Assembly (NCBI GenBank): GCA_951406725.2 | Contig: OX597828.1 | Location: 7,378,001 to 7,442,000, forward strand | Origin: Octopus vulgaris | Lineage: Eukaryota | Reading direction: 5' to 3' | DNA length: 64,000 bases | In this document: positions 20,241 to 54,773 of the stretch, piece by piece | Layout of the letters: the number at the start of each line of letters is the position of its first letter | Numbering within the stretch: the stretch's first letter is position 1 | Notes under the pieces: generated by a model | Databases searched by the model: none | Told to the model about the DNA's origin: nothing | The model's input: only the letters and a program-made list of their open reading frames with translations | Program-made: the position numbers and the translations under genes

Positions 20241-20430
20241 CGCCATGATAGATCGGTAGCCTTTACACACATTTTTTTCTCTCCTTGTTTCTTTCTGAGT
20301 TCCTTTCTGTGGAAGAGCGTAGGCTCGAAACGTTAAAAACTTTTTCTATTCCTGAGCGTTATACTAATACATCTGTTTGTTCTCTACACCACCTGTCTTC
20401 GTCTTTTTGGTTTTTTACGTGAATTCTCCC

Positions 20431-20432
<2 letters not shown>
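20241..20432 (+). mobile_element. Family E: ~190-bp (TA)n-associated element with minimal hammerhead variant (20303-20338)
   Basis: CUUU-CUGUGGA-A-GAGC-GUAG-GCUC-GAAAC-GUU-AAAA; five homologous copies in the window. Confidence 0.75.
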
Positions 20433-20529
<97 letters not shown>

Positions 20530-20949
20530 TATATATAACTCTCTATCTATTTGTTTCTCTCTCTATCCCCCCCTCTCTCTCTCTCTAAATGTCTATCTAT
20601 CTATCTTCCTATAGGTAAATATATCATTCAATTTAGTGCATTGATTGTATATAAAGGGATAACCAATTTGGCTCAGAGGTGAATTTCACCAACAGCTGAG
20701 GTGATTCCACTGCATAACCACTTGAGTTTACGTATTTTCCATAGCTTTGTGTAACCAAAGAATTTTGAGCGAATTTTGTTTGATTACAATATTTCACTTA
20801 ACCTTCTTATATGGAAAACGCGATTGTAATCGAGTTTAAACTACTTAATATCTACCGGTTTCCCTATTTGTCTTCCTTATTTACTTTTAAGCAATAGCGT
20901 TTTGATTTTCAATGACATTTCGTTCGATATTTTCTAGATCCTTCCCTAA

Positions 20950-22151
20950 CAATATCGTAAAAGAGGTTCGTTGCAGTTACCAATAGCATCAATAGTCGAA
21001 ATATATAAGTTGGGGAAGATACGGACGGTCATGATGCTGAGAGAATCGAAGGATATGGAAATCAGGCGTAACCCACCAGAGGTGAAAATAGCCAGGAAGT
21101 GGAAAGCAGAAGCAGAAACTGACAACATCTTGTCTTCTCTTATACACAGAGATATGGTGGGAGCAACGCAGAACCATCGGAAAGGATTTGGTTTTGGCGC
21201 AGATCAGTTCAGACCGTTTGCAAGCATGATGCAGTGTGAACGCAGATCTGTTGTTAGCAACAGCGTCAAAACAAGAGAAGCAGAGAGAAGAGGGCTTCAT
21301 TTGATCCGATGTGTTCATCAAGGTCAGATGACGAGATGGGAAGAACATGTTGAGAGGAAGATAAGTTGGGATGAGATGTGGAAGTGGACGACATCTCGGC
21401 TGAGTTTCCTGATTCGTTCATCTTATGATGTTTTGCCATCACCTACGAATCTAGTAAGATGGAACGTCTTAGAGAATGACATCTGCAAATGTGGAAAGGT
21501 CGGTACACTAAAACATATTCTTTCCAACTGTTCATTAGCATTGAACAGGTACACATGGAGGCACAACTTGGTCCTTAAGGTTATCTTCAATGCTATAAAG
21601 AACCAAATTCATCTCAACAACACTGAGGAAAAATCGTTAAAAGTACCATCAAGAGAGTTCATTACCTTCGTGCGATCAGGTCAGCAGATCCGTTTCAAGA
21701 AGAAGACCAAGAAACTTCCTGAGAAAAATGAAAAGTGGAACGGCTATTGGGAAGTAACTGCAGATTTACCTGGGTGCCAGATTTTCTTTCCCATCCCAGT
21801 TTCGAAAAAACCAGATATTTTGATGTGGTGTGAAAGAAAGAAAGTTGTAAATATAGTCGAACTAACGGTTACTCACGAAGATAATATGGACGCCGCTCGA
21901 GCTCGAAATTAAACCGTTATGAAAACCTCCTCGAGGAATGTGAAGACGCAGGCTGGAAAGCGGAACATTTTCCTATCGAAGTCGGATGTAGAGGGTTTGT
22001 AGGACACAGCGTGAGACGACTGTTGTTATCGTTAGGCCCAACTCATCGTAAAGTCAATACCACCATGACTGATATCCAATCTACAGTGGAGAAGGCTAGC
22101 CACTGGATTTGGTTAAAAAGAGACGATGAGCGATGGCTAGAAGTATATTGA
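20950..22151 (+). pseudogene. 5'-truncated RLE-type non-LTR retrotransposon (HERO-like): post-RT region, CCHC knuckle and restriction-like endonuclease
   Basis: ORF 20971-21912 has CKCGKVGTLKHILSNC, RYTWRHNLVL and KPDILMW..IVELTV.HE. After a 1-nt frameshift at ~21907 it continues LNRYENL..GWK..FPIEVGCRGF..EKASHWIWLKR to TGA at 22149-22151. Clade assignment is from recalled motifs. Confidence 0.85.
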
Positions 22152-22171
22152 GTTCTTCATAACCAGCTGAT

Positions 22172-22298
22172 CTAGCAAGCGGGGCCTCATATCAGTGAGG
22201 GGGGCCGGTGCGCATTGATGCCGTCGAGAGGTAGGCCCCGAAACGGCGCGCATTCTCTCCTGATGACCCTATACACTTGCTAGCTTCCGATATACGGA
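22172..22298 (+). ncRNA. Structured retrotransposon 3' UTR containing hammerhead core segments in non-canonical order
   Basis: Closing helix CTAGCAAG/CTTGCTAG; GCCGTC|GAGAG (22220-30); GGCCCC-GAAA-CGGC (22234-47); CTCTC-CTGATGA-CCCT (22255-70). Confidence 0.6.
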
Positions 22299-22379
22299 GT
22301 TTTTAACTGATAGCACTTGCATGTGCAAGTTGTTTGCAAGACATATATTCACTGCAAAACTTCATGTATGAATATATGC

Positions 22380-22416
<37 letters not shown>

Positions 22417-22518
22417 TATATATATATATATGAATGTATGTATGTGTGGGTGGGTGTGTATGTATTTATATACACACGTTCGTATATATGAATATATATA
22501 TATATGTATACATAATTA

Positions 22519-22885
22519 ATAATACCAGGGTAATAAAGATTTTAGAAACTTTTACTACCAGTAAAAATAATTTACTATGCGAAGTCTTCATCAACAGGGA
22601 CGCCATAGATTAAATATATAAACAACGAGGCCAATCCAGCATGTGTCTTATTGCTTATACATTTTAATTTTTGTCAAATCTACTGCGCTGTTGATGAAGA
22701 CTTCGCCTAGTAAATTATTTTTATTTACTAAAATAAGTCAGAAACGAGGGTCCAGGAAAGAGATGGTAAATGTTTTTCTTTTTCATTCCCTTCGGGAATT
22801 TATCCCTAAGTAGTGGTTTGGACTTTAGCTGTTCTTTCTAGCGCAGAGGATTCCTATGATGGAAATCTCTTAATGTGCTTAAATG
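22519..22885 (+). mobile_element. (TA)n-embedded fold-back element with degenerate hammerhead (22688-22755)
   Basis: 36-bp inverted repeat 22562-22597/22688-22723 (1 mismatch); CUG-UUGAUGA-AGACUU..AAGUCA-GAAAC-GAGG-GUC-CAG. The 3' part resembles 6937-6990. Confidence 0.6.
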
Positions 22886-22904
22886 TACACTGTATATATA
22901 TATA

Positions 22905-23098
22905 TGATAGATCGTTAGCCGCTCGCACATTTTTTTCTCTCCTTGTTTCTCTTCCTGTCTTTTTTGTGTCCCTTTCTGTAAAAGAGCATAGGCTCGAAAC
23001 TTAAAGGATTTTTTCTATTCCTGAGCGTTATACTAATACAACTGCTTGTTTTGTGCACGACCTGTCTTCGTCTTTTGCTTTTTTCGTAAACTCTCCCT
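22905..23098 (+). mobile_element. Family E element (hammerhead variant 22972-23007, decayed)
   Basis: Homologous to 20241-20432. Confidence 0.75.
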
Positions 23099-23501
23099 AT
23101 ATATATATATATATAAGGCTTTCGCTCCACACACGCCAGCTCTGTTTTATTCGTCTCTATCAATCGAAAGATACCTGTTGTTATTTTGTTGTTGTTTGTA
23201 TTTGTATGTGTGTAACGTTTTCTCCGTTTTTATTTGTCTTTGTTGTCGTACACATTCGCTTACTTTCTCCCCAAATATTTAATGCTCTAAGCTTAGATTT
23301 TTGGGGCCAGCCAGATCTGATCAGCCTCAAGTGTAACAGGGCGATACTGTAAGAAAGATTTGGAAACTTGACTGACGAGAGATAACAGCGAAAGACCCGT
23401 CCTTGTTCTTCCTGTCCGTTTCTTTTTATTGTTTTTCCTGTCCGTCATTGTATCGTCTATCTGTCGTCTTCTGCATATTTTGTTCAATATTATATATGTA
23501 T

Positions 23502-23661
23502 GAGTGGCTGTGTGGTAGGTAGCTTGCTTACAAACCTCATGGTTCCGGGTTCAGTCCCACTGTGTGGCACCTTGGGCAAGTGTCTTCTACTATAGCCTCG
23601 GTCCGACCAAGGTCTTGTGAGTGGATTTGGTAGACGGAAACTGAAAGAAGCCCGTCGTATG

Positions 23662-23718
<57 letters not shown>

Positions 23719-23918
23719 TTGTGTGTCTGTATTTGTTCTCCCAACATCGCTTGACAACCGATGCTGGTGTGTTTACGTTCCCGTAAATTAGCAGTTCGGC
23801 AAAAGAGACTGATAGAATAAGTACTAGGCTTACAAAGAATAAATCCTGGTGTCGATTTGCTCGACTAAAGGCGGTGCTCCACCATGGCCACAGTCAAATG
23901 ACTGAAACAAGTAAAAGA
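23502..23918 (+). mobile_element. SINE family C, full length
   Basis: tRNA-like head TGGCTGTGTGGTA..GGTTCCGGGTTCAGTCCC, internal (TA)(TG)n, LINE-like tail. Confidence 0.9.
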
Positions 23919-24982
23919 GTCTTGGGGCCACTGATGTTTATAGTGGCCCTTTCAAACATGCCTTCAGTTGCTACGATGACCACCCTTGCTAGCTATGCAG
24001 ATGACACAAAAGTCTCTCACGCAATACAAAACCCTGAAAATATTGCGCATCTGCAACAGGAGTTGGATACAATATACAGGTGGGCTGAGGACAACAACAT
24101 GCAGTTTAATGCAGGTAAGTTCCAGGCCCTGCGCTACCGGCACACAAAGGTAAACGACGTGTAGACTGGATACACTGGCCCAGGAAGAATTGCAATCCCT
24201 GAGTCAAAATCAGTGCGTGACCTGGGCATTGACATGAGCAATGATGCATCTTTCCAAGTGCATATTGCTAATCTGGTGATAAAATGCAGACGGCTAGCTG
24301 GATGGATTCTCCGAACTTTCAGAACAAGAGAGAAGGAGACACTGATGGTCCTATGGAAAACATTCGTCCTCATCCGCTTGGGCTACTGCTCCCAACTGTG
24401 GTCACCACACAATATAAAACTAACAGCAGAACTCGAAGCAATTCAGAGAAGCTACACAAAGAAAATCGTCTCAATGCAAAATATCAGCTACTGGGAAAGA
24501 TTGAAGGTATTAAACCTCTTCTCCCTAGAGCGGAGGCGGGAGAGATATGCGGTGATATGCATCTGGAAAATCCTGGAGGGTCTTGTCCCAAACTTTGGCA
24601 TTCAAAGTTACCCTAACCGCAGAATGGGGCGCCACTGCATGGTGCCAAGGATTCCAAATCACCATCAAAATACAGGTCCAGATACTGCAACAGCTTGGGT
24701 TTCAGAGGACCACAGCTCTTTAACATCCTCCCTAAATGCCTAAGAGACTTACATGGTGTGGATGTGGGTTTCTTTAAAACTAAACTGGATCTCTTCTTGT
24801 CGGGAGTCCCAGATGAACCTACCTCACGACAGGAGACGCAGATGCGGGCAGCAGCATCGAACGCCCTTGTTGATCAAGTGCCACGTATCAGAGGTGGATT
24901 CACAAATTAGTGTAGCTCATTCAGCGGTGGTGCCCCAGCATGGCCGCGGCCTTCGGGCTAAAATATTTTTAAGGATTTAAGG

Positions 24983-24987
<5 letters not shown>
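23919..24987 (+). pseudogene. 5'-truncated CR1-group LINE (RT C-terminal half plus 3' UTR)
   Basis: VLGPLMF..YADDTK..LQQELD..W..NNMQFNAGK, VRDLGI, YCSQLWSP, LEAIQR, YWERLK.L.L.SLERRRER. In-frame stop at 24162-24164 and a frameshift near 24655; ends in TTTAAGGA repeats then (TA)n. Confidence 0.9.
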
Positions 24988-25041
<54 letters not shown>

Positions 25042-25361
25042 ATACAGACACACACACACACACAAACATATATACATACAATAGTATACATGCACAAAAT
25101 TATCTCCCTTGTTGCACATATGCAAATGAAACCTCATCTCTTCGAGGGCCTTCTGGTCTTCCAAACTCAGACTTTCGCAATAAAATTTGACAGAGAAAAA
25201 CACGTAGATTTTTCGTTACTTCAGTCTATTTTTTATTTGAAAAGAAAGGCTTAATCTTAGAACGAGGAAGCCACTTTCCTTTAATCTTGTATACAGCATT
25301 AACCCGGTAATTACATTCCGTTTTCACTTTGCTCTTACACTATTTTTGGTCGTACATTTCG

Positions 25362-25453
<92 letters not shown>

Positions 25454-25668
25454 ACAAACGTTTATTTCTTTGTCATTTCATTTTCTTAGTTCCGCTCTGT
25501 ACTCGACTAGTGCTTCGTTCTGAAGCATATGTATATTAAAATCTACTCTACGTTATTAAGATAGCAATCCGAATAATAGATAGTCAGATAGATAGATAAA
25601 TAGATAGATAGATGGACATACATACATACATACATACATACATACATACATACATACATACATACATG

Positions 25669-25812
25669 TAACCACACGCGTGCTTTCCTCTGACTAATTT
25701 TACTTCTCTCTGGTTCTTTCATCTTTCCTCTTTCTGACGAAGAACCATGCTTGAAACGTTACTCACTCTTTTTTCCATATTGAGCGTCAGCCTAATACAT
25801 ACACTGTGCTCG
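25669..25812 (+). mobile_element. Decayed family E-related element with hammerhead remnant (25731-25763)
   Basis: UUU-CUGACGA-A-GAAC-CAU-GCUU-GAAAC-GUU followed by TGAGCGTC..CTAATACAT, as in family E. Confidence 0.5.
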
Positions 25813-25932
25813 TATATACATACATACATAAATGTATATACATATATGTATATATATATATATGTGTGTGTGTGTGTATGTATATAGATATATATGTAAT
25901 AAAACTTACTTGGAGTATGTATGTATGTATGT

Positions 25933-25963
<31 letters not shown>

Positions 25964-26571
25964 TATATATATATATATATATAAACACATTTTATACATA
26001 TACACAAATACAAACCGGAATAAGTGGTTATTACTGTTTCTTGTTCACTAGGAACAAAATACTTTCCATTGTTGACTTTTTAAGACTGCGAAGTTGGCAA
26101 GAATTATCACGCATCACCACAAAAAAAAAAAGAAGAAAAAAAGAAAGAATAAAAGAAAAGGAAAACGTTGTTTGTCGAAAGACGATGCCAAAACCATTTC
26201 CATCAGGAACCATTCCTTCGCCTTAGTCTGTTAATACAACAACTATCACAAACAAATATCTTGATATTTTAATTGTACTAATTAACTATACATTAACTGG
26301 AAATAGTTTGTATGTTAGTTCTTTAGAGTTTTTCGGTTTCCATGTTTTGTTTTTTATTTGTGTGTTTGCACGAAAAACTATTTTGTTTGCTTATTATGTT
26401 TTTTAATTAAAAAAATAATTTCTGCTATTTCCTGTTGGCGTACTGTTTCTGTCATTTGAACTCGTGCAGGTTTTTTGACACTAATAAACCAGAAGCGAAC
26501 GAATTACATTTTGTGATTTGCGTTGAAATATACGAATTGTACGGGATAATTTTACATTCTCCTTCTCTCCT

Positions 26572-26608
<37 letters not shown>

Positions 26609-27660
26609 GTCTTCCTCTCTGCTTTCTGTCTGTCTCTTTCGCTCTCTGTCAATGTACGCTTTAGTACATACACGCACAGACATACACACATATTCCCTCT
26701 GTTTTGTGTGTGTGAATATGCTAATATGTGTCTGTGTGTGTGTGTGCATGTGTGTCTCTGTGTGTGTGTGTGCGCGTGGGTGTGCATGTGTGTAGATATA
26801 TACACATATATTTATATATATATATATGTTTATATACACATATGTGTGTATATATATATGCATACATGTGTGTCAATGTGATAAACTACGTTTACAACGT
26901 ATAGGTAATTTATCAAACGTAATTGTCATCTGCATCAGGACGCTCATCAGAATTCAGAACATGTAGATATCAACACACACACACACACGCCCACACACAC
27001 GCACACAAACACACACACACGCCCACACGCGCACACACACACACGCGCACACTCGTAGAACTATACTCGCGTCCACATACATGGACACATCAGTCTTTAC
27101 AGAAACATCCACATACATAGAGAAATAAAGATTCGCACGTATACATAAAGAGCGTTACAAAGACACACAAGCTATGTTGGTTTCCTGAAAGCATCGTTGG
27201 TTTTACTGTTTTGCTTGTGGTGTATTTAGTTCAATGTTTCAATGTTCTACGTTCAATTCCCATAGGGAATATCATCCTTACACAAACGAAAGATAAGACA
27301 AAGAAGCAACAGGGTTGCACTTTCGATTTAATTAGATTTTTCTCCCCCGATAAACGAGGGCGCTTCTACTGAGACCCACGAGAGTGATTCTGCGTAGGCA
27401 CTTAATTTGTCCAACGTCATTTCTTCTTGAAAAAACTGTATATCATTTAATACAAAGGCCACCATTTTGAAGTCGTAGATTAGTGACTTAGAAACCCTTT
27501 GCTTTTTATATTTGATATTCAATAAGCCCCTGCTTTTATTTCTTACTTCTAGTATACTTATATTATATCCTACAGTAAGAAGCCTGCCGATTTCCTAGAA
27601 ATAGCAGCCATATCTACGTCAAATTTTGAAAAAGAAAATGACACATTATATATATATGTG

Positions 27661-27692
<32 letters not shown>

Positions 27693-27876
27693 AGTGGAAT
27701 TCTCTCTCTGTCTTTTCTCCCACCCTCTCTCTCTCTATTTATCTATCTATATATATACATACACATACACACGCAATCCACTCAACATATTTTATATAAG
27801 CGTACACACACATATATACATATAAATATATATTTACACATTATCTATCTATCTATCTATCTATACGCACACACAC

Positions 27877-27939
<63 letters not shown>

Positions 27940-27964
27940 TACAATAATAATAATAATCATAATA

Positions 27965-28376
27965 GCTATATAAATGTATCTGTCAAGACCTACCATAACA
28001 TAGAAATGGGCAAAATGTGGAACCTGAAGGATAAAACAATACCTGTTGTCATACTTGCCCTTGGAATGATAGCAAAAGGGGCTGATTGCTACCTAGTTCA
28101 GATACCAGAAAACTCCCAAATGGCACAAATTCAAAAGATAGTGCTCAAGGGAACTGCCCATATCACACGTAAAATACTATGGAATCTAAAATTTTAAAAC
28201 AAACTCATAATTTTCTTATATTTTCTTAAACATTCCCTTGAATAATACTATGGGCAAAACCAAATATATGACACCCTTGGCATAACACCAACATGAACTT
28301 CTAACTTGTTGTCTCTTGAGGTCTCTGGGTGAGACTTGGAGCCAACTTGTACAAATACAAAGCAAAAATCAAACAT
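27965..28376 (+). pseudogene. R4/Dong-like RLE LINE 3' fragment inside (TAA)n
   Basis: IEMGKMWNLK..TIPVVILALG..IQKIVLKGTAHITRKIL matches the R4-clade endonuclease C-terminus. (TAA)n lies on both sides (27878-27960, 28377-28505). Confidence 0.75.
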
Positions 28377-28391
28377 ATAATAATAATAATG

Positions 28392-28471
<80 letters not shown>

Positions 28472-28544
28472 AACAACAGTAATAATAATTATAATAATAA
28501 TAATAAGGATTATTATGATGTAGCATTAGCATTACCTTTAATTC

Positions 28545-28579
<35 letters not shown>

Positions 28580-28583
<4 letters not shown>

Positions 28584-29339: not shown

Positions 29340-29370
<31 letters not shown>
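28580..29370 (+). mobile_element. SINE-like element with (GAT)n tail, interrupted by a family D dimer
   Basis: Internal GGTGCC.CGTAAAAGCACC repeats. The sequence resumes after the TSD AGAATCCATGCCAAA and ends GTTAAA(TGA)n. Confidence 0.6.
28836..29239 (+). mobile_element. Family D SINE dimer (full unit plus headless unit)
   Basis: 15-bp TSD AGAATCCATGCCAAA at 28821-28835 and 29240-29254; internal junction AAATAG|GTATTTCG at ~29067. Confidence 0.9.
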
Positions 29371-29371
<1 letters not shown>

Positions 29372-31590: not shown

Positions 31591-34201
31591 TAATGCCTAC
31601 AAAACGAACATTTTGAGCATTCCCCTAGAACCCTTTTCAAACCGCAAAATATGAAAGGATTATCGATCTCAATATTTAGTTTATCAAGATCCGGAAGGAG
31701 GACCGTTCTCACAGTTCCACTGTTGAACACCCTCGGTGTGGGGCATTTTTAATGACACTTAAAAGAGAGAAAGTAAAGTGACTTCGACAGGATTTGAACT
31801 TAGAGCGTAGACAATAACAATAAATACTCGATTCAGTCCAACTATCTAACGACACTGCCAATTGGCCATGTGTGTATATATGTGTATGTGTTTTAGGCTT
31901 GTGTAAGAATATGCAGGATTTGAGCTCAAAGTGTAAAACGCCGAGGCAAAGACGCTGCCAAGCATTCAAATCGGAGATCCCACAAATTCTTATTCGCCGT
32001 CAATGGCAAATGCGATAACGATATATCCTAACCAGTGTTATACCTCGATATATATGAGATGGTTATTACATATCCTTCTCGTGTATATCGGGTATGTTCA
32101 GAATGACGTTGTAGAATAAAGATGTCATTGCAATTGATGTTAAAGGAATGACAGAATCACTAGAGCGTCGGACAAATCTCTTGCGGTATTTGTTCCGGCT
32201 ATGAAACTCTGTTGTAATATAACCTGGATTGGGTAAAAGTGCGTGCGGACAGGCGTGTGTGTGCGTGCGTGCGTGCGTTATTATGTTGTTGAGTCCTGAT
32301 CCGAAAGATCTGAAGATGCAATATATTTCAGCCTTGACTTCCCGTTCTTCTCGTTAGACGATCATATCTTAATCATTACGTTGTTCTATTTTCTTCGTTA
32401 GTGCCTTGTCATTTGAAGGAAATTTAGCTACTATTTCAAGCAGATTTTACATCGAAGCTCCATTATTAACTCCCGTGCGTTTGTGTGTTTGTGTGTGTGT
32501 GTTTGTGTGTGTGTGTGCAAGCGTGCGTGCATGTGTCATATGTATGTGCATGTGTATGCGTGTGTGTGTGTGCGCGCATTATCCTTTTGTCAGGAGGGAG
32601 GGTAATACTCATGACCTTTAGAGGTCATCCGAGTCAAATGTATGGGAGAAAAGTATCTTCAACCTGAAATTCTAGCCCGAATGCTTGCAACAGTGTGATG
32701 TCCGCTCAAGGTAATGTTAAATCATGCGGTCAGTTAAGTCAACAGTCTAGCCCCGCTTTGGTGCGATTTGAAACCAGAATACAAAGAGTTTGAAGATATG
32801 CTGTAAGACATCCGCCCCCAACGTTCTTACAGTTCCACCCTTGAACACCCTCGGTGTGGGGCATTTTTAATGACACTTAAAAGAGAGAAGGCAAAGTGAC
32901 TTCGACAGGATTTGAACTTAGAGCGTAGACAATAACAATAAATACCCGATTCAGTCCAACTGTCTAACGACACTACCAATTGTCCGTGTGTGTATATATA
33001 TATGTGTGTGTGGTTTAAGCTTATGTGTAAAAGTGATGTGGTATCTTATGTGTTTTGTGTGCGGGCATGCATTCCTAAATTTGAGCTTTGAGTCTGTACG
33101 TGTATATGTGTGTATGTTTGTATAAGTTTGAGTGTGTGTGATCGTGTATATGTAAATGTAGCTATGTTTATGACAAAATAAACTATGCATTTAAAATCAC
33201 ACACTAAGACAATCCTTACTGTTGGCGGTGGAGCCAGATAATGTCAATAATGAGGTCATGAACTCCGGTCAAAATTGTTCACTGTAACAGGACGTCACCA
33301 CAATAAAATAAATATTTAGGAATCTGTTGAGGAAGAAAGAAACAGGTCTTCTTTCCTTTTGTTGAAAGTTGGATAAATAGCCTCTAATTTCACCCGTACG
33401 CCTTGCTCAACTTATTTTATCAACTAAGGCAGCAGTTGCTGGAATGGTTGTAAGTATATTGAAGACTTGGAATATTACAAAAGCCTAAATACAGGTCGAA
33501 TATGCTGAGATAAAAAAAAAAAAAAAAGTGAATATAAATAAATTACAATGAACATACAGTATTATTGAACGAGTTATGTTGTTTATCAATATCTAGAACA
33601 ACTACGGGATATAACTCCAGGCATGTTTCTCCGTTAACGAAAATCATCAGAAGGAAAGTAGCGTGCCCGTAAAATAGCTAAGATGTTTGGAGACACATAA
33701 CTACATAAATACAGAGAAATGCATATTCACTGATGAATTCTTTACAAACTGAGTAATTCTGAAACATCGCACATAGTGATAAACGTGCGTATACACATTA
33801 ACACACTCACATATACTAACACATACACACAGAGGCACATATTCACATATACACACTCACAAACGATAGATAATATGCAAGTGCACTCACGAAAGTTTTT
33901 ATAACAAGGGGTATCGACATTTTGATCTGATATTATAAGCCCTAACATGCATACATACACACATACACACATACCTGCATACATACACACTCAAACATAT
34001 ATACATATCTATATATAATCGGAAGAGGATGCGTGGCGTTCAATCATACAATGATATAAATTATATATGCATATATGTTACAGAGAGAGTAAATTTACTA
34101 CTATCATGTTCTTAAGAATGAAATCAACCCCTCTGTCTATATAACTACTCTCTTTATAATGTTGGCAAACGAAATAGAGATAAGAATGTGCATTGTCTGT
34201 T

Positions 34202-34244
<43 letters not shown>

Positions 34245-34253
34245 TATAGAAGG

Positions 34254-34304
34254 AGCTTCTACAGGACTAGAACTGTTTCATTCAAGAGAAATCATCAGGA
34301 AGCT
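34254..34304 (-). ncRNA. Type I hammerhead ribozyme (left inverted copy)
   Basis: AGCUUC-CUGAUGA-U-UUC-UCUU-GAA-U-GAAA-CAG-8nt-CUG-UA|GAAGCU. Confidence 0.75.
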
Positions 34305-34419
34305 AGTTAACAAGAATTGTATTGGCATTTATACATTTAGGCAGGTTTAAAGGGGTGGTGGTGGGGGACATTTTGGGGGTAGGCATAGCGCAAAAATATC
34401 ATACTTGGGGGAGTGGTCA

Positions 34420-36280: not shown

Positions 36281-36486
36281 ATGAGAATCTCCTTATTTAC
36301 CTAAAACTCTATTCTTCTATAAATTTTTTATTCTTTTATTTATTCTTTTATCTAATTTACCACTGACTCCTTGACCACTCCCCCAAGTATGATATTTTTG
36401 CGCTATGCCTACCCCCAAAAAGTCCCCCACCACCACCCCTTTAAACCTGCCTAAATGTATAAATGCCAATACAATTCTTGTTATCT

Positions 36487-36537
36487 AGCTTCCTGATGAT
36501 TTCTCTTGAATGAAACAGTTCTAATCCTGTAGAAGCT
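36487..36537 (+). ncRNA. Type I hammerhead ribozyme (right copy)
   Basis: Stem I AGCUUC/GAAGCU, core CUGAUGA 36493-99, GAAA 36512-15, stem III ACAG/CUGU, predicted cleavage after GUA at 36531. U-U occupies the first stem II pair. Confidence 0.8.
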
Positions 36538-36621
36538 CCTTCTATATAATAAATTAATTTTACTCTGCTATGTATTGAGTACCTTATTTACTGTGGTTAA
36601 CCCCGAATCAACCCGGGACCT

Positions 36622-38384: not shown

Positions 38385-38442
<58 letters not shown>

Positions 38443-38625
38443 GGGAGAGTTCACGAAAAAAGCAAAAGACGAAGACAGGTGGTGTACAAAACAAACAGAT
38501 GTATTAGTATAACGCTCAGGAATAGAAAAAGTCTTTTACGTTTCGAGCCTACGCTCTTCTACACAAAGGGACTCAACAAAAAACAAGGAGTGAAAAAACT
38601 GTGTGTAGTGGCTACCGATCTATCA
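38443..38625 (-). mobile_element. Family E element (hammerhead variant 38533-38568)
   Basis: CUUU-GUGUAGA-A-GAGC-GUAG-GCUC-GAAAC-GUA-AAAG. Confidence 0.75.
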
Positions 38626-38862: not shown

Positions 38863-39287
38863 TAAGTAGGTGAATGAATTATCCTAGTATTGATAATTCG
38901 GTTAATCGATACCTGGGTAGGAAATTCACGTCAAAAAACACGGTTGAAGCTACAAGCCAAGGGCAGAAACCCCGTGTTCTTGTGTGGTAATTTGTGTGTT
39001 TTCTTTATATTAATAAATGAAAGAATGGAGTCGAACGAAGATTTTAACAAAATTCCTTTACTCTCAACACATGTTTCGAAGACTGCATACTCTTAATTCC
39101 GAAGGAATAAAGGGTGCATTATGCCGTCTTCTCATCAGGAAAGACAAGGAACCTCTATCAGCCTCAAGACGAACAAAAACTTTTTTATGACTGCCTACAT
39201 GGAATTAAGAGTATGCAGTCTTCGAAACATGTGTTGAGAGTAAAGGAATTTTGTTAAAATCTTCGTTCGACTCCATTCTTTCATTTA

Positions 39288-39294
<7 letters not shown>
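38863..39294 (-). mobile_element. Penelope-like pLTR element with hammerhead (39061-39143) and 94-bp inverted terminal duplication
   Basis: CUUUC-CUGAUGA-GAAGAC..GUCUUC-GAAAC-AUGU-GUU-GAGAG. 39201-39294 is the reverse complement of 39007-39100; homologous to 43438-43777. Confidence 0.8.
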
Positions 39295-43439: not shown

Positions 43440-43636
43440 AGTAGGTGAATGAATTATCCTAATATGGAAAATTCGGTTAACAGATACCTGGGTAGCAAAT
43501 TCACGTCAGAAAACACGGCTGAAGCTATATATCAAGGGTAGGAACACCGTGTTCTTGTGTGTAAATTTGTGTGTCTTTTTTTATATGAATAAATGAAAGA
43601 ATGGAGTTGAACAAATATTTTAACAAAATTCCTTTA

Positions 43637-43719
43637 CTTTCGACACATGTTTCGAAGACTGCATACTCTTAATTCTGAAGGAATAAAAGGTGCATTATGC
43701 CGTCTTCCCCTCAGGAAAG
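43637..43719 (-). ncRNA. Type I hammerhead with A9G core mutation
   Basis: CUUUC-CUGAGGG-GAAGAC..GUCUUC-GAAAC-AUGU-GUC-GAAAG. Confidence 0.65.
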
Positions 43720-44147
43720 ACAAGGAACCTCTATCAGTCTCAAGACGAACAAAAACTTTTTGATGACTGCCTACATTGTGCCCACAATGATAATGATTGT
43801 TTTTTAAAAATAATCCGTTATAAGCAATTACGTCAAAATTGGTTGGAAGGAGGAAGTACTAAAAGTAGGAAGGGAACCGAAAGTATGCTGTATTAATGGG
43901 GATGCGCGGGTGTCTGCTTTCGTTAATGAGTGTTTGCTTTCATTAACGAAAGCAGACACCCGCATCCCCATTAATACAGCATACTTTCGGTTCCCTTCCT
44001 ATTTTTAGTACTTCCTCCTTCCAACCAATTTTGACGTAATTGCTTATAACGGATTATTTTTAAAAAACAATCATTATCACTGTGGACACAATGTAGGCAG
44101 TCATCAAAAAGTTTTTGTTCGTCTTGAGACTGATAGAGGTTCCTTGT

Positions 44148-44230
44148 CTTTCCTGAGGAGAAGACGGCATAATGCACCTTTTATTCCTTCAGAATTAAGA
44201 GTATGCAGTCTTCGAAACATGTGTCGAAAG
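44148..44230 (+). ncRNA. Type I hammerhead ribozyme, canonical core
   Basis: CUUUC(44148-52)-CUGAGGA-GAAGAC..GUCUUC-GAAAC-AUGU-GUC|GAAAG; predicted cleavage after 44225. Confidence 0.85.
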
Positions 44231-44277
44231 TAAAGGAATTTTGTTAAAATATTCGTTCAACTCCATTCTTTCATTTA

Positions 44278-44351
<74 letters not shown>

Positions 44352-44623: not shown

Positions 44624-44625
<2 letters not shown>
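44440..44625 (+). mobile_element. SINE family C, 3' half
   Basis: CACCACCGCTTGACAACCGATGTTGG..GGCGGTGCTCCAG tail. Confidence 0.8.
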
Positions 44626-44674
<49 letters not shown>

Positions 44675-44703
44675 CCTTAATCCTTATATATATATATATA
44701 TAC

Positions 44704-44754
<51 letters not shown>

Positions 44755-45090: not shown

Positions 45091-45137
<47 letters not shown>

Positions 45138-45139
45138 TG

Positions 45140-45179
<40 letters not shown>

Positions 45180-45984: not shown

Positions 45985-46033
<49 letters not shown>

Positions 46034-46039
46034 ATGCGT

Positions 46040-46300
46040 GCTAAACTCAATGAACAACAAAAGAAGAAAACAGACAGCACAAGAAGGTTTAGACCTAAAA
46101 ACTGCTGTTAATAAATGATCACTTAAAATGAAGGGGAAGAGGCTTAACGTTTCGTACGTAAGTCCTTCATCGGAAGAAAGGGAAAATATGTGGGTGATTG
46201 AGAAGTAACATCACTAGAAGCAAAAATACTGATGAGGGCTTAAGGACCAAATGGAGATGCATTCTGTGCAAGAATGAAGGTAAGATGGGTGGTTGTATAT
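46040..46300 (-). mobile_element. Decayed Penelope-like 3' end with minimal hammerhead (46143-46176)
   Basis: CUU-CCGAUGA-A-GGAC-UUAC-GUAC-GAAAC-GUU-AAG; layout like 7261-7470. Confidence 0.5.
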
Positions 46301-48660
46301 GTGTGCGCACGTGTACGTGCATCACGGTATGTATCTCTCCTCTTATTGTATTATATGTGTATATTGTGATACTGATAAATGGAAGTGTGAAATAGCTGTT
46401 ATGTATGATACAGCTGTGATGTCTCTTTATATTGTGGGATATCTCTATTGCGATTGTGTGTCTATAATATGATCTACTATGCGTGTATTGTTGATAATCG
46501 ATGTGGTACAAAAATATAACACGCGTTGGAAACTACGTCATTTTGTACGCTCCCTGTGCTGGAATTGTTTTTGTTTTAAGACTTGTGCATGTGTGTCTAT
46601 ATTGTAACCTCTTTCACCAAGGCTTTCGCTCAACAATACAAAATTAGCTTTCTAAAGATAAATATCAGTAGTTCTCAAATTATGCGTTATAAGGGACGTT
46701 ATGCACCTTAGACTTTTAAAAAAATCTATTACAGCTTTAGAAATCCATATTTATGAATTCATAGTTTTATTATATACAACAATGGTGGATACTTTTCCAA
46801 ATTTTTTATTTAAAAAATTTAAATTTAAAATAGTTATTTTTAATTGCCCTTGCGAAGTTCTACATGAATTTTTCATTTGACCTCCCTTGTGCCTCAATGT
46901 AAAAAATAAACAAAATGAGAATCATCATACGCTGTGGTCATTTGATCGACTAGAAATGGCGAACAAAGTCCCTCCAATTATATTCTATCGTCTTAAATCA
47001 GTCCGAAAACTTTGTAGTCTGATATATTTTAAACGTTGCAATGATCGCGACTGTAATGCTTTTTTTTTTCTCACAGGTTTGCTAAATCCTCTTGATCTTG
47101 GCTAAATCGCAACAATACTTTCTACTATGGACACAAATCCAACACTTTTCTAGGGAGGAGAAATGAATTACATCGATCCCAAAAGAATGAAAGGCAAAGT
47201 CGAGTTCAGCTTCCACCAAGGTCGACTTTACTTTTCCTCCTTTCAGGGTCGATAAAATATAAATACCATTTGAGCACTGGGGTCAATATAATCGACTTGC
47301 TCATCCTGCCTTGTGTCAAAATTTGAAATCAATAAGTATCACAGTTATTTTCTATCCTGTAGAAACATGATAATGTATGCCGATTGGCTGAGTCATCAGA
47401 GCGTTGGATCTTCTTTTCCAGCTCTCTGCACTCTGATTTCGAATCTTACCAAAGTCACCGTTTCCTCTCATTGCCGCAGTGTCGATAAACAAAGTGCCTA
47501 TCCAGGGGTACTGGATTTTCAGAAATTTTAGGGTGTCGATTGAACTCAAAAACTCCACCCAGGTGACGATGAGCAGGACTTATGAGTCGACCTTAGAAGC
47601 AACTCTGCTACATCCACAACTGGTCTGCATGAACAGGTAGGCCTACAACCGTTATGGATAAACGAGCGACGACTTGTTGAGACCTTCATCCAGCAACAGA
47701 ACAACAATGGCTGATTGAAAACGGATAGCTTATTAACAAAATTGTGCCGGTGTACCGGTTTCATTGTCATTTAGTCTCGGCCAACACTTTTCTAGGGAGG
47801 CACAAGGGAGGTCAATAAACTAGACTTATCAACGTTGTTCTAGCACTGGTCGTTTCATCCTTTATTTCAGCCATGATACATCTAGGACTACAGTATCCTT
47901 CTTTTCCATCTGAGGACAAATTGCTTGATATTTCTTGCAGGTCTAGTGACCTCGTACGGACAATATCATTGGCTCATGTATGGATGTGTAAGAATATGTG
48001 AGTGAGTAGGTAAGTGTGTGTTAAGTGTGTGTATGTGTTTACACAGCTGCCATCTGACAAAGTTTTAATTAATAAATGAGGGTTAAATATTCTCCGAAAC
48101 TCCCTCTCGCTATCTCTCTATAACTATCTTACTTCCCTCATTCCACCTTCTCTCTCTGTCTCTTTATTTTTGTCTTCACATCCGTCCGTTCCATCCTTCC
48201 GTTGCTATAATGTTATGTCCGATGACAAACAACATATTAAAAAGGTTTGTCATAGCAACAACACCCGAAATCACGTGATCTAGTCTGTCCACTAGATAAC
48301 TTGATGCACACATCATTCTTACCTGCTCAGGTAAACTAAATTGTCAATCATAAATATCAAATAGCTATTGCTATAGTTACTTATCGCACTAACAACCTAT
48401 GTTACTTACTTATTCATATAGGTACTTAGATACGCGTGTGCACACATGCATACATAAACGAATATACATACTCGTACATATAATCACACTCTACGTCAGT
48501 GAGAGAATGTATGCGCACACACACGCACACACACACATACATCTAACAATCATCCATTCATATACACAGCGTGGATCGATGTTTGTATGAGTATATCTGT
48601 ATACACAATGTATAAGGCTATATATATGTAAATATATATACGTATATATACATGAGCGCA

Positions 48661-48704
<44 letters not shown>

Positions 48705-48771
48705 CGTATATCCATACATATATATCTATATGTACATATGTATCAATGTGTGTGTATACACACACATGATA

Positions 48772-49029
48772 AATAAATAAATGTGCTCTTTTAAAGCCTA
48801 GCCAGGCTCATGGGCCCGGTTTCCTGGTTTCAATGGCGTATGTGTTCCCCAGCTGGACGGGATGCCTGTCCATCGCAGCCTAACTCATATTTGCCAGCTG
48901 AGTGGACTGGAGCAACGTGAAATGAAGTGTTTTGCTCAAGAACACAACACGCCGCTCGGTCCAGGAATCGAAACCACAATCTTACGATCATGATGCTGAC
49001 AGCCTAACCACTAAGCCATATGCGCTTAC
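48772..49029 (-). mobile_element. SINE family B
   Basis: Homologous to 9390-9651. Confidence 0.9.
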
Positions 49030-49160
49030 ACAGACACACACACACACACACTTTATTATTTAAGCTGCAAAGGCATCACAAAAATATCGCAAAAAACTGC
49101 TACTTAAAGTTTCGCACTCCCGTATGTATATACGTATGTAGAGAGAGAGAGGGGGGGTGA

Positions 49161-49204
<44 letters not shown>

Positions 49205-49296
49205 GTGTTCTGTAGTTTGGTAAGATTGAAGGAAAAAGAAACAAAGATAAATAATGAAATACATATGAACCGCAGTGAAATTGGGATATCGCCTTC

Positions 49297-49720
49297 TTAA
49301 AGTGATGTCAGAGATCCCATCACTGACTGGTGAGACCTGCTACTGATCTTATCTAAACCTGTACAATGTGTTCTATGGTCGAGTGGACGGCGACTAAACC
49401 GCCTCACCACCATCCCACTTAAGCAGCTTGCTACTCGAGTGAGGAGGATGTTTGGACACCCTACAGGGCTGAAAACAAGACCTGTCGTGGGGGAGGAAGA
49501 GCTCCTTATGGGCCAACGGCTATTCAGTTGGGGAAGGCAATGGCAAACCAACCTTGCCAAGAAAACACTATAAGAAAGTCAGCAGAAAGTAACGCAGTGG
49601 CTTTATCCGATTGGAAAACTGGCGCTTGGCCGGGAAGACCGTCGTACTGACATCAACGTGCTGCGGAAAGCTTCCGATACATGACGAAGAAGATACGACC
49701 GCTGTAAAACTGGGGCTTTG
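49297..49720 (+). mobile_element. RTE 5'-UTR-like interspersed repeat
   Basis: GGTCGAGTGGACGGCGACTAAACCG..GTGAGGAGGATGTTTGGACACCCT..CCAACGGC is homologous to 37015-37195 (minus strand). Confidence 0.5.
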
Positions 49721-49793
49721 CCTCCATCATATCAACCGTAGAACTATTTCACTGTGATACTGATTTTATCGTCCTCGAAACTCAAAATCATAA

Positions 49794-50013
49794 CCTTTTA
49801 GCATTTACATTACCCTATCAAATGTAACGTTTATTCATTTGCATTGTTTTGAATTAATCATTATTATCTCATGGCTTCGAAATTTTTTATGTTATGATCA
49901 TTTATTTTTACAGTAACATTGAATGGTAGGTGTGAGAGACCAGACCTCACTGGTTTGAACATATAATTGGTTGAAAATTTGGGCCGGATATTGTCGGTCT
50001 AAATGCTAAGGAG
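49794..50013. mobile_element. piggyBac-like MITE
   Basis: (A)TAA-CCTTTTAGCATTTA ... TAAATGCTAAGGAG-TTAA: short TIRs with TTAA-type flanks. Confidence 0.55.
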
Positions 50014-50887
50014 TTAACGTAACCTGGAGGTTAAAGGAGGTACTCAGAATATAAATATTCTGACTTCAACTGTTCTTGAACTCACATTTGTTTTACATCT
50101 TTTCGGAATTGATTCGTATAAACGTCGATGCAGTGTAATGGGAGAATAGCTAGGGTTTCAAGTGTGATGCCTTGCAGAACCTTTGTATTCTGAATACATG
50201 TACTTATCTTTATTGGAGTCCTGTCAAAAGTTATCTTATTACGAAAGCGCAACATCGTGTTCCAGTCATCAAATAAATAAATAAAGAAAGAAAGAAAGAA
50301 AGGGCCGTAAATATTCATTCAGAATTGAATAAAATCTGTAATATTGGTTTCTAATTTTGTCAGTAATTTCGGGGGAATGGATAATTTGATTACATGTGCC
50401 CCAGTTTCAAGTGGTTGTTGTTTTATCATCCTCGTAAGGGTGAAATATAAAGTCGACCCCGGCGACATTTTAACTGAGAACGTAAAGACAGAAGTATTTT
50501 CCCCCGGTTGATAACGATTCTGCCAGCTCACCGCCTTAAATTAAATCTGTAATATTACTGAGCAGGTAGTTCTCGATCACATCTCCCCTAATTCATGTGG
50601 GAGAAAGTGAGATTCTTTTACTCATTACATATTCTTAAGATAATTTTATTCAAATCTTTTTTCAAATACTGAGCACTCCGTCTTTTGTTTTATGGTCCTT
50701 GCTCAACCATCTGTCTGTCTGTTTGTCTGTCTGTCTCTCTGCATACTCACACACATACAGATATGTGTGTGATATACATACATACATACATACATACATA
50801 CATACATACATACATACATACATACATACATACATACATACATACACACACACACATATATATATATATATATCACCATGATATATC

Positions 50888-51073
50888 GCCATGATAGATC
50901 GCTAGCCACTACACATTCTTTATTTTCTCTCCTTATTTCTTTCTGTGTTCCTTTCTGTGGAAGAGCGTAGGCTCGAAATGCTACAGACTTTTTCCCTTCC
51001 CGAGCGTTATACTAATACATCTATTTGTTGTCTACACCACCTGTCTTCGTGTTTTTTTTTTTTTGTGTGAATT

Positions 51074-51076
<3 letters not shown>
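50888..51076 (+). mobile_element. Family E element (hammerhead variant 50951-50986, decayed)
   Basis: Homologous to 20241-20432. Confidence 0.75.
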
Positions 51077-51130
<54 letters not shown>

Positions 51131-51132
51131 TA

Positions 51133-51336
51133 CGAGGTGGTGCTAAAAGTTCCTGGGTAAAAGAAAATACAGGAGGATCAAATAATTATGATTTTATACA
51201 ACATATTGCTATCTCAGAATCATACGCTGATTGCAGCGGTCCTCCAGTTTTTGTAAACCCTGTAAAAGAACCCAGAAGGTTGGGCCTCCAGCCAGGCCTT
51301 GCGCGATACCCTTGAAGCCAGGAACTTCTCAGCACC
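51133..51336. mobile_element. Tc1/mariner-type MITE
   Basis: TA-CGAGGTGGTGCTAAAAGTTCCTGG ... CCAGGAACTTCTCAGCACC inverted termini; the outer right end is missing. Confidence 0.65.
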
Positions 51337-51595
51337 GATACATGTATACACACACACACACACACAGAGACAAACACATACACACACACAAACAAACACA
51401 CACACACACACAGAAATAAAGGAAAAGTGTCATAGATAGATGAGTAGGAAAGAATTGGTAAAAGGGATGAATGGCTCACTCATTGTAAGGATTAATGAGT
51501 TGGTATTTTAGTAGGTAGGATAGTTCGGTACGTAGACACATTGATGCAGAGAGAGAAAGGCAGAGGAGTATGAACAAAACAGGTCCTTACACACA

Positions 51596-51666
<71 letters not shown>

Positions 51667-51734
51667 GCACAACTACACCCACGTAATCACACACACACAC
51701 ATATACATACGCATTTACTCACACAAAACATAAA

Positions 51735-51776
<42 letters not shown>

Positions 51777-52464
51777 TAAAGAACGATAAGTGTGTGTGTA
51801 TGTGTGCGTGAGCGCGTGCGCGTGAGCGCGTGCGCGTAAGTGTGTGTGTGTGTATACAGAGCAAGAGTGTCAAATGCGTTTGGTCAGGATATTGATAAAT
51901 TGTCACTTCCTATTTTTTATGTTGAGCATAACAGCGAACCTCCTCATATAATAAATAATGTTCTATATTTTATAGCGCACTGAGTTATATAACGTCTATC
52001 TTATAGTATCTTCACCCCTTTCAATGCCAGGTCCCTTTTAGAAATAGTGCATATCTCCTCAATCAATTTCTGATAATGTAATTGGCCGAGTCCCGTAACT
52101 CCTTTGATGTAAACCTCATTTTCGTGTGTTACAAATGATATTATTAAACATGCTTTTTAAGGTCTAAGTTCTGTCGTTATATATTCTATTCTCTAAGCAA
52201 TTCACAGAATTGCTTAGAAGTGTAACAGCTAGTTATTTGGAAGACAACAATCATTACCATTTCAATGGGCTTGAAGAAAACTATACGATTCCTTTAGAAG
52301 GTATCTGTCTGCCTAAACAAGCAATCTTAACGTCAGAAAAGTCGACCATACGAAATATAATTATTACTAAAGTTATTTTTGCTGAAGAACGAGACGACAA
52401 AATGATTCTACACAGTTTCGCAACTTACTGGAAGTACTTTCAGTCACTGGTTTAAAACTATTCT

Positions 52465-53245
52465 TTTTTTTTTATTACCCAAAAGGGGCTAAACATAGAG
52501 GGGAGAAACAAAGACAGACAAACAGATTAAGTCGATTACATCGACCCCAGTGCGTAACTGGTACTTTATTTATCGACCTCGAAAGGATGAAAGGCAAAGT
52601 CGACCTCGGCGGAATTTGAACTCAGAACGTAACGGCAGACGAAATACCTATTTCTTTACTACCCACAATGGACTAAACATTGAGGGGACAAACAAGGGCA
52701 GACAAACGGATGAAGTCGATTACATCGACCCCAGTGAGTAACTGGTACTTTATTTATCGACGCCGAAAGGATGAAAGGCAAAGTCGACCTCGGCGGAATT
52801 TGAACTCAGAACATAAAGTGAGACGAAATACCTATTTCTTTACCACCCACAAGGGGCTAAACATAGAGGGGACAAACAAGGACAGACAAACGGATGAAGT
52901 CGATTATATCGACCGCGGTGCGTAACTGGTACTTTATTTATCGACGCCGAAAGGATGAAAGGCAAAGTCGACCTTGGCGGAATTTGAACTCAGCACGTAG
53001 CGCCAGACGAAATACCTATTTCTTTACTACCCACAAGGGGCTAAACATAGAGGGAACAAATAAGGACAGACAAACGGATGAAGTCGATTATATCGACCCC
53101 AGTGAGTAACTGGTACTTAATTTATCGACCCCGAAAGGATGAAAGGCAAAGTCGACCACGGCGGAATTTGAACTCAGAACGTAACGGCAGACGAAATACA
53201 GCTACGCATTTCGCCCGGCATGCTAACGGTTCTGCCAGCTCACCC
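52465..53245 (-). mobile_element. Family D SINE tetramer (one headed unit plus three headless ~184-bp units)
   Basis: The junction GACGAAATAC|CTATTTCTTT occurs at ~52647, ~52831 and ~53015; head at 53195-53245. Confidence 0.92.
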
Positions 53246-53780
53246 TATCGGTCACAGTCTCTCGTTTAGTTTGGTAGTTATTTTATCGATCTCCTACCTA
53301 ATCTCTAAGTTACGCTTTTGATAGGGATGAATCTCTATACATAAAGAACCCCAGTAAACGTAAACATGTTGTTTCTATCCACCAAATTTCATTCGCATAG
53401 CACTTGTCATTCCAGGGCTAAAACAGAAGTGTGGGATATTAAAATCCATCCGATCAGGAATTAAGTGGTGCTGAAGCGATCTTATTACGCACAATGCCCT
53501 GCCATACATACATACATACATACATACATACATACATACATACAGACATGCATACATACATGCATAATCTATAAATACCTACGTACATACACACGCGTGT
53601 GTGTATGTGTGTACATGTATGTGTGTGTATATATACATATATTGACATACACATGATTACTCACGCCCAAAACTTCTACTGGGTACTTCTACATACATAC
53701 ATACATATATATATATATACAGTGTACATTTAAACACATAAGAGATGTCCATAACAGGACATCTGACTCGCTAGAAAGAT

Positions 53781-53837
53781 TAGTTAAACTACAAACCACT
53801 AATAGTTGTAATTAGAAAGTGGTTTGTAGTTTAACTA
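53781..53837. repeat. Perfect 20-bp inverted repeat
   Basis: TAGTTAAACTACAAACCACT (53781-800) / AGTGGTTTGTAGTTTAACTA (53818-37). Confidence 0.85.
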
Positions 53838-54520
53838 CTCTATATTAATTAATGATATATATATATTTATTTATATGTTCAAAAGCTAAGATTGCAGACT
53901 GTTGCTACAAGTTTGCATCCAACCGTTAGCAATGTAATATTTTCGACGCAAAATCCTGAGTGATAACTCAGTAGCTCAGATAACGAATAGCTAAGCTCTA
54001 TTTCTTTGAGAATCGCTTACACCAAGAACATGTTCTACCTTGACTACCTAGGAAACGTCATACCACTCTCAAAGTTCGTTTGTAAATAAAGAGACAAAAC
54101 CGAGACTAATGGCATTTCATGGACGTTGTTAGATAAAGTCCATACGTGTTAGAGAAGGTCAAATACTGCTCTTATGACTCACGGAGAAATTCTACATCAC
54201 CTGACATCTGATTATTTTGTAAAGAGTAACAAACTAATTTTGACTTGCTTACACTTGTTCAAATGATCGCGAAGGTATCCTCCCGGCAACCGCTGACGAT
54301 TTACATTGCTAATAATCTCAAAACTCCTTTTATTGCATTCAGAACAATTGGCATGGACTGACATCTGACGGGTTGAATAAACTGAGGCTCGGTGATATTT
54401 ATTACTTGTTTACTTTAAATAAATTAACATACATATGGTTACCCACGCCAACAACTTCTACTTGGTACTTCTAAATTTTGTACTACATTATATACAAAAA
54501 TGTGTGCCTGCATGTCAAGA

Positions 54521-54771
54521 CGCCATGATAGATCTTTAGCTACTACATACTTTTTTTCTCTCCTTGTTTTTTTCTCTTCTTTTTTCTCTCCTTTTTTTCT
54601 CTCCTTTTTTCTCTCCTTGTTTCTCTCCTTGTTTTTTTCTGTGTATCTTTCTGTCGAAGTGCGTAGGCTCGAAACGTAAAAGACTTTTTCTTTTCCTGAG
54701 CGCTATACTAATACATTTGTTTGTTTGTACTCCACCTGCCTTCGTCTTTTGTTTATTTTCGTAAACTTTCC

Positions 54772-54773
<2 letters not shown>
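54521..54773 (+). mobile_element. Family E element (hammerhead variant 54647-54682) with internal TTTTCTCTCC expansion
   Basis: CUUU-CUGUCGA-A-GUGC-GUAG-GCUC-GAAAC-GUA-AAAG. Confidence 0.75.

Follow-up and report, generated by a model that had tools for sequence, protein, structure and literature searches.

A dispersed Octopus vulgaris repeat, likely of Penelope-like origin, carries a hammerhead-shaped motif with uridine at core position 6

Minimal hammerhead ribozymes occur in the pseudo-long terminal repeats (pseudo-LTRs) of animal Penelope-like elements (PLEs) (Cervera and de la Pena 2014, PMC4209133), where their role is debated: processing of tandem transcripts, an unknown role and parasitism have all been put forward (PMC8557442). 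Among the 56 example motifs of PMC4209133, an extra nucleotide is present in 54, an A in about 30 of them by hand count, and all 56 have A at core position 6; the descriptor reported there fixed the catalytic boxes, and motifs with U6 could therefore not be found by it. PLEs make up 6.83% of the Octopus vulgaris genome, in 190 families (supplement of PMC13282606). A bias towards insertion in microsatellites has been described for Neptune and Naiad PLEs, and Naiad PLEs are reported to proliferate without canonical hammerheads (PMC8557442). Here we describe a hammerhead-shaped motif with U at position 6 in family E, a dispersed repeat of about 190 bp present in five copies (a to e) in a 64-kb stretch of O. 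vulgaris DNA (contig OX597828.1, positions 7,378,001 to 7,442,000), referred to below as the window, whose own coordinates are used throughout.

The window has a G+C content of 36% and contains many microsatellites and interspersed repeats. The five copies of family E are:

20240 to 20430, plus strand: copy a, with (TA)n at its 3' side
22904 to 23097, plus strand: copy b, flanked on both sides by (TA)n
38442 to 38625, minus strand: copy c, flanked on both sides by TA-rich microsatellites
50886 to 51075, plus strand: copy d, flanked on both sides by (TA)n
54521 to 54773, plus strand: copy e, with (TA)n at its 3' side

Pairwise identity between copies is 78-91% (differences of 9-22%), and divergence from the majority sequence is 5-13%. 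Copy a has 52 extra nucleotides on its 5' side (20188-20239), preceded by another (TA)n, and copy e contains a T/C-rich tandem expansion inside the repeat at about 54552-54637. (TA)n lies 3' of all five copies and a TA-rich microsatellite lies 5' of four; the flanks are unrelated and both strands are represented. The copies are thus five separate insertions ending in (TA)n. No convincing non-simple direct repeat was found flanking any of the five, and insertion into microsatellites with no clear target-site duplication is the pattern of Neptune-like PLE pseudo-LTRs. A non-LTR retrozyme is recognised by two or more units in direct succession, each with a complete hammerhead, an arrangement that family E does not show in the window: 2.7 and 3.7 kb of unrelated sequence separate its nearest same-strand copies. 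These two pairs were considered as pseudo-LTR pairs around an open reading frame (ORF) and rejected, as what lies in the gaps is a long interspersed nuclear element (LINE) remnant together with microsatellites and other repeats, and Pfam matched none of it.

Each copy contains a 36-nucleotide motif, located where a sequence-only reading of the window had placed five homologous copies:

20303 to 20338, plus strand: motif of copy a, with U6 at 20310, the extra A at 20314, ACGU intact and U17
22972 to 23007, plus strand: motif of copy b, with U6 at 22979, G8A and the palindrome lost (ACUU)
38533 to 38568, minus strand: motif of copy c, with U6 at 38561 and C3G, the rest matching the consensus
50951 to 50986, plus strand: motif of copy d, with U6 at 50958, C15.2U, U16.1C and a stem I mismatch
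54647 to 54682, plus strand: motif of copy e, with U6 at 54654, a U-U mismatch in stem II, a 5-bp stem I and ACGU intact

The computed majority motif, CUUU-CUGUNGA-A-GAGC-GUAG-GCUC-GAAAC-GU(A/U)-AAAG, is identical to the consensus given by that reading, and U6 is present in all five motifs as it had claimed, together with the extra A between A9 and G10.1, the G10.1-C11.1 pair and GAAA (each 5/5). In the consensus, stems I and II, GAAA, ACGU and the NUH site are all perfect, giving the palindromic, loopless stem III and NUH site of PLE minimal hammerheads; the A6-containing CUGANGA core of the type I minimal hammerhead is absent. The ACGU palindrome had been attributed to all five copies and is intact in three only (a at 20303, c at 38533, e at 54647), reading ACUU in b and AUGC in d. 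U16.1 plus H17 are kept in four of the five. The core is most intact in copy a, where stem I has just 3 bp. An additional defect is found in every copy, and in three of them a further lesion falls at an essential core position; under any reading, cleavage by these five genomic copies, lone monomers with extra lesions, is unlikely on their sequence. In copy d (50951-50990, plus strand), clustered changes make the 3' arm complementary to the core, forming a 7-bp hairpin of -13.9 kcal/mol, possibly through a quasi-palindrome template-switch event.

The inserted A and the loopless, dimer-type stem III had been regarded as non-canonical; both are standard hallmarks of the animal PLE minimal hammerheads in PMC4209133, and A6U is the sole non-standard feature of the family E motif. 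With two of the three flagged features already described, A6U is a modest new variant. No report of a hammerhead A6U was found in the literature searched, and specialised surveys outside that search may list A6 variants. When two core mismatches were allowed, a minimal-hammerhead descriptor matched five of the eight related motifs of the window (those of family E and the three described below), missing b, d and 25731, and matched nothing in any of 10 shuffled windows. No ninth member emerged with a profile of the eight motifs (next best E=2.3). In Rfam searches, no hammerhead was among the best 150 of 406 window matches, which were microsatellite-driven, and no hammerhead model was among the 2 matches to copy a at E up to 10. 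Judged from its letters, the family E motif descends from a PLE minimal hammerhead and has the shape of one, and it is not classed here as active.

Three related motifs, reported earlier at 7367 (-), 25731 (+) and 46143 (-) as keeping A6, do so:

7367 to 7401, minus strand: related motif f, with A6, U4C, G10.1A and a compensatory G-C pair in stem I
25730 to 25764, plus strand: related motif g, with a canonical CUGACGA core, a broken stem I and the downstream box present
46143 to 46176, minus strand: related motif h, with A6, U4C and a different stem II
20350 to 20371 in copy a, and equivalent positions elsewhere, plus strand: downstream box TGAGCG...TAATAC, present in all five copies and in the relatives at 7397 (-) and 25734 (+)

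The relatives hold CUGACGA or CCGANGA in the same register as family E. Motif f has the downstream box and (TA)n flanks, and about 400 nucleotides upstream of motif h, including an ORF, gave no significant protein match. The box sits 18-25 nucleotides past the cleavage position, and flanks of family E are only 42-48% alike to those of the relatives at 7397 (-) and 25734 (+). The low variation of the box within the family was set aside: its 2/110 differences against 61/621 (p=0.003) lost significance under scan permutation (p=0.24).

At the observed divergence, five independent A-to-T changes at position 6 have a probability of p 1.2e-6 or less, and copies a-e form one clade against the three A6 relatives with support of 92/98. 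Together these results argue that U6 was inherited from the source element of family E, and the proposal that the family amplified with the variant core in place in all five copies is upheld. At least two weak subgroups exist within the family, both with U6. The expectation that stems I and II would be better kept than the flanks, one of the tests set by the sequence-only reading, was not borne out in the window: differences within the family number 4/80 in stems I and II against 63/731 in the flanks (Fisher p=0.39), and 15/180 in the whole motif against 63/731 (Fisher p=1.0). Stem II plus its loop has 2/60 differences and GAAA 0/20 (stem II against flanks, p=0.22). This equal decay of motif and flanks is mainly a measure of how the copies have drifted neutrally since insertion, and is little guide to the state of the source.

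A second change in the CUGA turn, U4C, was found in the two minus-strand A6 relatives (7397- and 46173-), and the turn is altered in seven of the eight related motifs. The T-to-C change at the U4 position creates a CpG, which is the opposite of the usual direction of decay, and U4C may therefore be inherited too. Over the eight motifs, 84% of stem I/II cells are paired and three pairs are changed on both sides; the pairing score exceeds that of all slid registers, and 47 of 500 shuffles reached as high, so that covariation is not significant.

In consensus folding models, the predicted probability of a U6-A15.1 pair is 0.42-0.98 over the four N7 states, against 0 with A6, and such a pair would bury the ACGU palindrome. 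Stem II forms in the consensus fold with a probability of about 0.78. An alternative pairing of GCUC with a downstream GAGC was dropped at a probability of 0.03.

Published data bear on the likely effect of a change at position 6. In a deep mutational scan reported in PMC9901934, activity was low in single mutants of the CUGA turn, the C3-G8 swap being the only change rescued. When A6C was introduced into a fast ribozyme, the rate in 0.3 mM Mg2+ was 3.55e-6 per min against 0.3, a loss of about 10^5-fold (PMC7151607). By analogy, A6U likely cripples self-cleavage of the family E motif, so that the ribozyme was probably not fully functional while the family spread. In the one reconstituted PLE, that of the anole (PMC11167929), C3G and G8C abolished cleavage and insertion in vitro was unaffected; the same report gives no RNA-seq ends at the cut site.

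On balance, we lean towards the reading that the source element carried a hammerhead crippled by A6U and spread anyway, since insertion would not need cleavage, its copies having decayed since. This third option fits the data better than either alternative offered by the sequence-only reading, an active natural variant or a fold kept for recognition by the reverse transcriptase (RT). Another lesion of the same CUGA turn, U4C, in two relatives points the same way. Family E would likely be the pseudo-LTR at the 3' end of a Neptune-like Penelope retroelement or of its non-autonomous derivative. In the course of events envisaged, A6 of an ancestral PLE hammerhead would have become U6 on the stem lineage of family E, removing the purine of the CUGA turn and, in the folding models, allowing U6 to pair with A15.1 and close the junction. 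A PLE RT/GIY-YIG protein would then have inserted copies of the RNA at TA microsatellites through target-primed reverse transcription, producing 5'-truncated or non-autonomous copies, and these would have decayed neutrally to lone monomers with further lesions, from which cleavage is not expected.

Several observations weigh against this reading. Between families, the motif is better kept than its flanks: family E shares 26, 25 and 22 of 36 motif positions with f, g and h, against 50, 58 and 49 of 120 flanking positions (72/69/61% against 42/48/41%, p 0.002-0.04), although this conservation may predate A6U. Of the 13 columns with a change common to at least two copies, the two in the 36-nucleotide motif are N7 and position 17, junction positions left free in active hammerheads. 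Shared changes affect 2/6 free and 0/30 constrained motif positions (Fisher p=0.024), and the chance of hitting this pair within 16 junction positions is 1/120. A pattern of shared changes at N7 and 17 only is a hint, in sequence, of residual activity; the statistic is post hoc, the five copies on which it is based split in conflicting ways (ad 4, bc 4 and de 3 columns), and the constrained columns (0/30) are not significantly below flanks (11/149, p=0.22). In folding models, the energy cost of a double hammerhead over two monomers showed no consistent shift by U6 (1.3-5.7 against 0.9-5.3 kcal/mol), the gap with U6 being higher for N7=U or A and lower for G or C, so that the dimer-energy argument about U6 is weak. 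A natural A6C ribozyme is reported as active, at under 0.1 per min in the first account (PMC3088659) and at 0.3 per min in Mn2+, and A6C in the fast ribozyme keeps activity in Mn2+, at 0.18 per min (PMC7151607). PLE hammerheads are described as slow and protein-assisted even when canonical (PMC4209133, PMC11167929). Finally, no PLE ORF (RT/GIY-YIG) was found beside any copy in a scan of low sensitivity, and truncated copies would lack one; the 24 + 19 frames scanned near the copies gave no Pfam or protein match, and the LINE remnant at 20950-22152 was likewise without a meaningful Pfam match. The PLE origin of family E therefore rests on RNA layout and insertion site. Weak resemblances to the C-terminus of GIY-YIG, one upstream of copy a and one upstream of motif h, were not significant and were not used.

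The first of the earlier alternatives keeps some support. The U6 motif may have been a slow working ribozyme in the source, cleaving as a dimer through ACGU with PLE protein or Mn2+, the rest of the core having been selected after U6; we hold this as a tentative possibility. The confinement of shared changes to N7 and 17 would follow from it, as would the perfect stems, GAAA, ACGU and NUH of the consensus, and it has precedents in the natural A6C ribozyme and its Mn2+ rescue, in the anole PLE hammerhead, which cleaves only with protein (PMC11167929), and in a viroid with natural U4C that stayed infectious (cited in PMC3088659). Apart from the reservations about the N7/17 statistic, it has to contend with the attribution of core-variant tolerance to tertiary contacts, which seem to be missing from minimal motifs, with the predicted sequestering of the palindrome by U6, and with the lack of tandem copies in the window. 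The second alternative, that catalysis was lost while selection still maintains the stem II/GAAAC fold as a signal by which the PLE reverse transcriptase binds or initiates, fared worse and appears improbable: the few differences in stem II, its loop and GAAA, their retention across relatives with three core states and the predicted stability of stem II agree with it, but stem II is not significantly better kept than flanks and the covariation is not significant. Moreover, in the anole element of PMC11167929, whose ORF begins at stem II, a template shortened to +20, and thus lacking the core and most of stem II, remained usable, and initiation takes place at a separate AC-rich stem-loop about 110 nucleotides into the ORF. 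It is very unlikely that the shared U6 is local, through one regional source or homogenisation with A6 genome-wide, or that the motif is not hammerhead-derived. The data come from one 64-kb window and Rfam recognised no hammerhead in copy a, yet the flanks of the copies are unrelated, the insertions occur on both strands, pairwise differences are 9-22% and at least two weak subgroups, all with U6, can be distinguished; the descriptor matched five motifs against none in 10 shuffles, and the relatives carry hammerhead cores in the same register.

A family amplified with an uncompensated A6 change is a natural experiment on the role of hammerheads in PLEs. If U6 is dead, the family would have spread in vivo with no need for cleavage, as one element has been shown to insert in vitro; if instead protein or Mn2+ lets U6 cleave, hammerheads would tolerate a wider range of cores than descriptors allow and censuses of PLE hammerheads would be too low. 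A more speculative proposal, which we consider rather doubtful, is that an octopod Penelope lineage loosened its CUGA turn more than once (A6U, and U4C in two relatives) while its sources stayed under hammerhead-type constraint, giving ribozymes that are inactive on their own, need the element's protein or an unusual cation in order to cleave, and are missed by box-fixed searches. Such loosened-turn motifs would be natural high-copy ribozymes. The genomic copies themselves resemble ordinary decaying repeats, and the overall surprise is modest.

Other elements of the window were also recorded. At 22209-22275 (+), about 60 nucleotides past the stop of the LINE remnant, a single-copy sequence has hammerhead blocks in the non-circular S-G-C order, with a GUC site, GAAA, a perfect CUGAUGA and 6-bp stems I and III. 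It is the sole S-G-C match in the window; 60 shuffled windows gave 0.18 matches per window over all orders and none in S-G-C. Its stem II has no clean fit, its fold z-score is 0.9 and it has no Rfam match. S-G-C hammerheads are described in PMC10085705 as reported only outside known genomes. A second PLE-like family (43440-44305 and 38865-39290) is a fold-back with 350-nucleotide arms, 95% complementary, between (TA)n runs; its cores are canonical CUGANGA (44153+ and 39138-), stem II has 6 bp and a long loop, and stem III is palindromic. A third family in two copies (36372-36542, plus strand; 34249-34419, minus strand) has the canonical core CUGAUGA, with 6 bp in stem I and a loop on stem III, and might from its sequence work as a monomer. 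Further CUGANGA...GAAA-like pieces at 33650 (-), 33730 (+), 23372 (+) and 11155 (-), and an inverted repeat at 22550-22733, passed no descriptor and are possibly the ends of older PLEs.

The LINE remnant at 20950-22152 (+) is the frameshifted 3' part of a non-LTR retrotransposon ORF with 61% identity to unnamed proteins. It gave 117 matches among 922 candidates, the best named being those from Octopus bimaculoides (83% identity, 41% of the query covered) and Argonauta hians (57% identity, 99% covered); its motifs suggest that it is of the restriction-like-endonuclease type. Remnants of another LINE lie at 23787-24743 (+), with an RVT_1 match of E=2e-5 for 23787-24161, and 12821-13303 (+) may belong with it by resemblance. 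The commonest interspersed repeat, which we take to be like a short interspersed nuclear element, occupies 15 intervals within 2054-59554, including a four-unit, 184-bp tandem array at 52467-53199.

Searches beyond the window were made with the repeat and its motif. For chance translations of the repeat in protein sets, 0/29 candidates passed, and three marginal matches among 1.84 billion proteins looked unrelated. In bacterial and archaeal genomes, a 26-nucleotide motif had 0 matches and a 20-nucleotide word had 1, which lacked the core upstream and was judged to be chance; no match to the family E motif was found in phage records. Eight short family E words had 0 occurrences in the curated Octopus, Chlamys and Hydra Naiad sets of the PMC8557442 supplement, a weak exact-word test.

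Among known systems, family E most resembles the animal PLE minimal hammerheads as described in PMC4209133, sharing the short stem I, the extra nucleotide between 9 and 10.1, the G10.1-C11.1 pair, a 4-bp stem II ending in GCUC with a tetraloop, the GAAA-CG-U-H loopless palindromic stem III, a U-rich 5' side and mostly dispersed single copies. The closest example listed in its supplement is the Acropora digitifera Neptune, with a 4-bp GGGC/GCUC stem II, a tetraloop and a C-G-U-H stem III. Family E differs in having U rather than A at position 6 and in not being linked to an RT/GIY-YIG ORF. A PLE family amplified with a variant core has a parallel in the Schistosoma Cercyon U3-A8 minimal hammerhead, with about 1,300 matches (PMC4209133), although U3-A8 is a compensatory pair that preserves structure whereas A6U is uncompensated. 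The natural A6C hammerhead of phage Bcep176 also has a pyrimidine at core position 6 (PMC3088659, PMC7151607); it is, however, C and not U, in a single phage ribozyme assayed as a monomer, in contrast to a multi-copy, minimal, dimer-type retroelement family, and it has been shown to be active. Animal non-LTR retrozymes, as presented in PMC7229834 and bioRxiv 10.64898/2026.07.22.740005, are likewise short, non-coding, hammerhead-bearing and PLE-related, with solo monomers common, but active ones form tandem arrays in which two or more successive units have a complete hammerhead, whereas family E in the window consists of monomers only. The anole Poseidon PLE (PAc; PMC11167929), which has a canonical core in a full-length coding element of the Poseidon clade, also bears a PLE hammerhead and provides the mechanistic model for the reading of family E given here.

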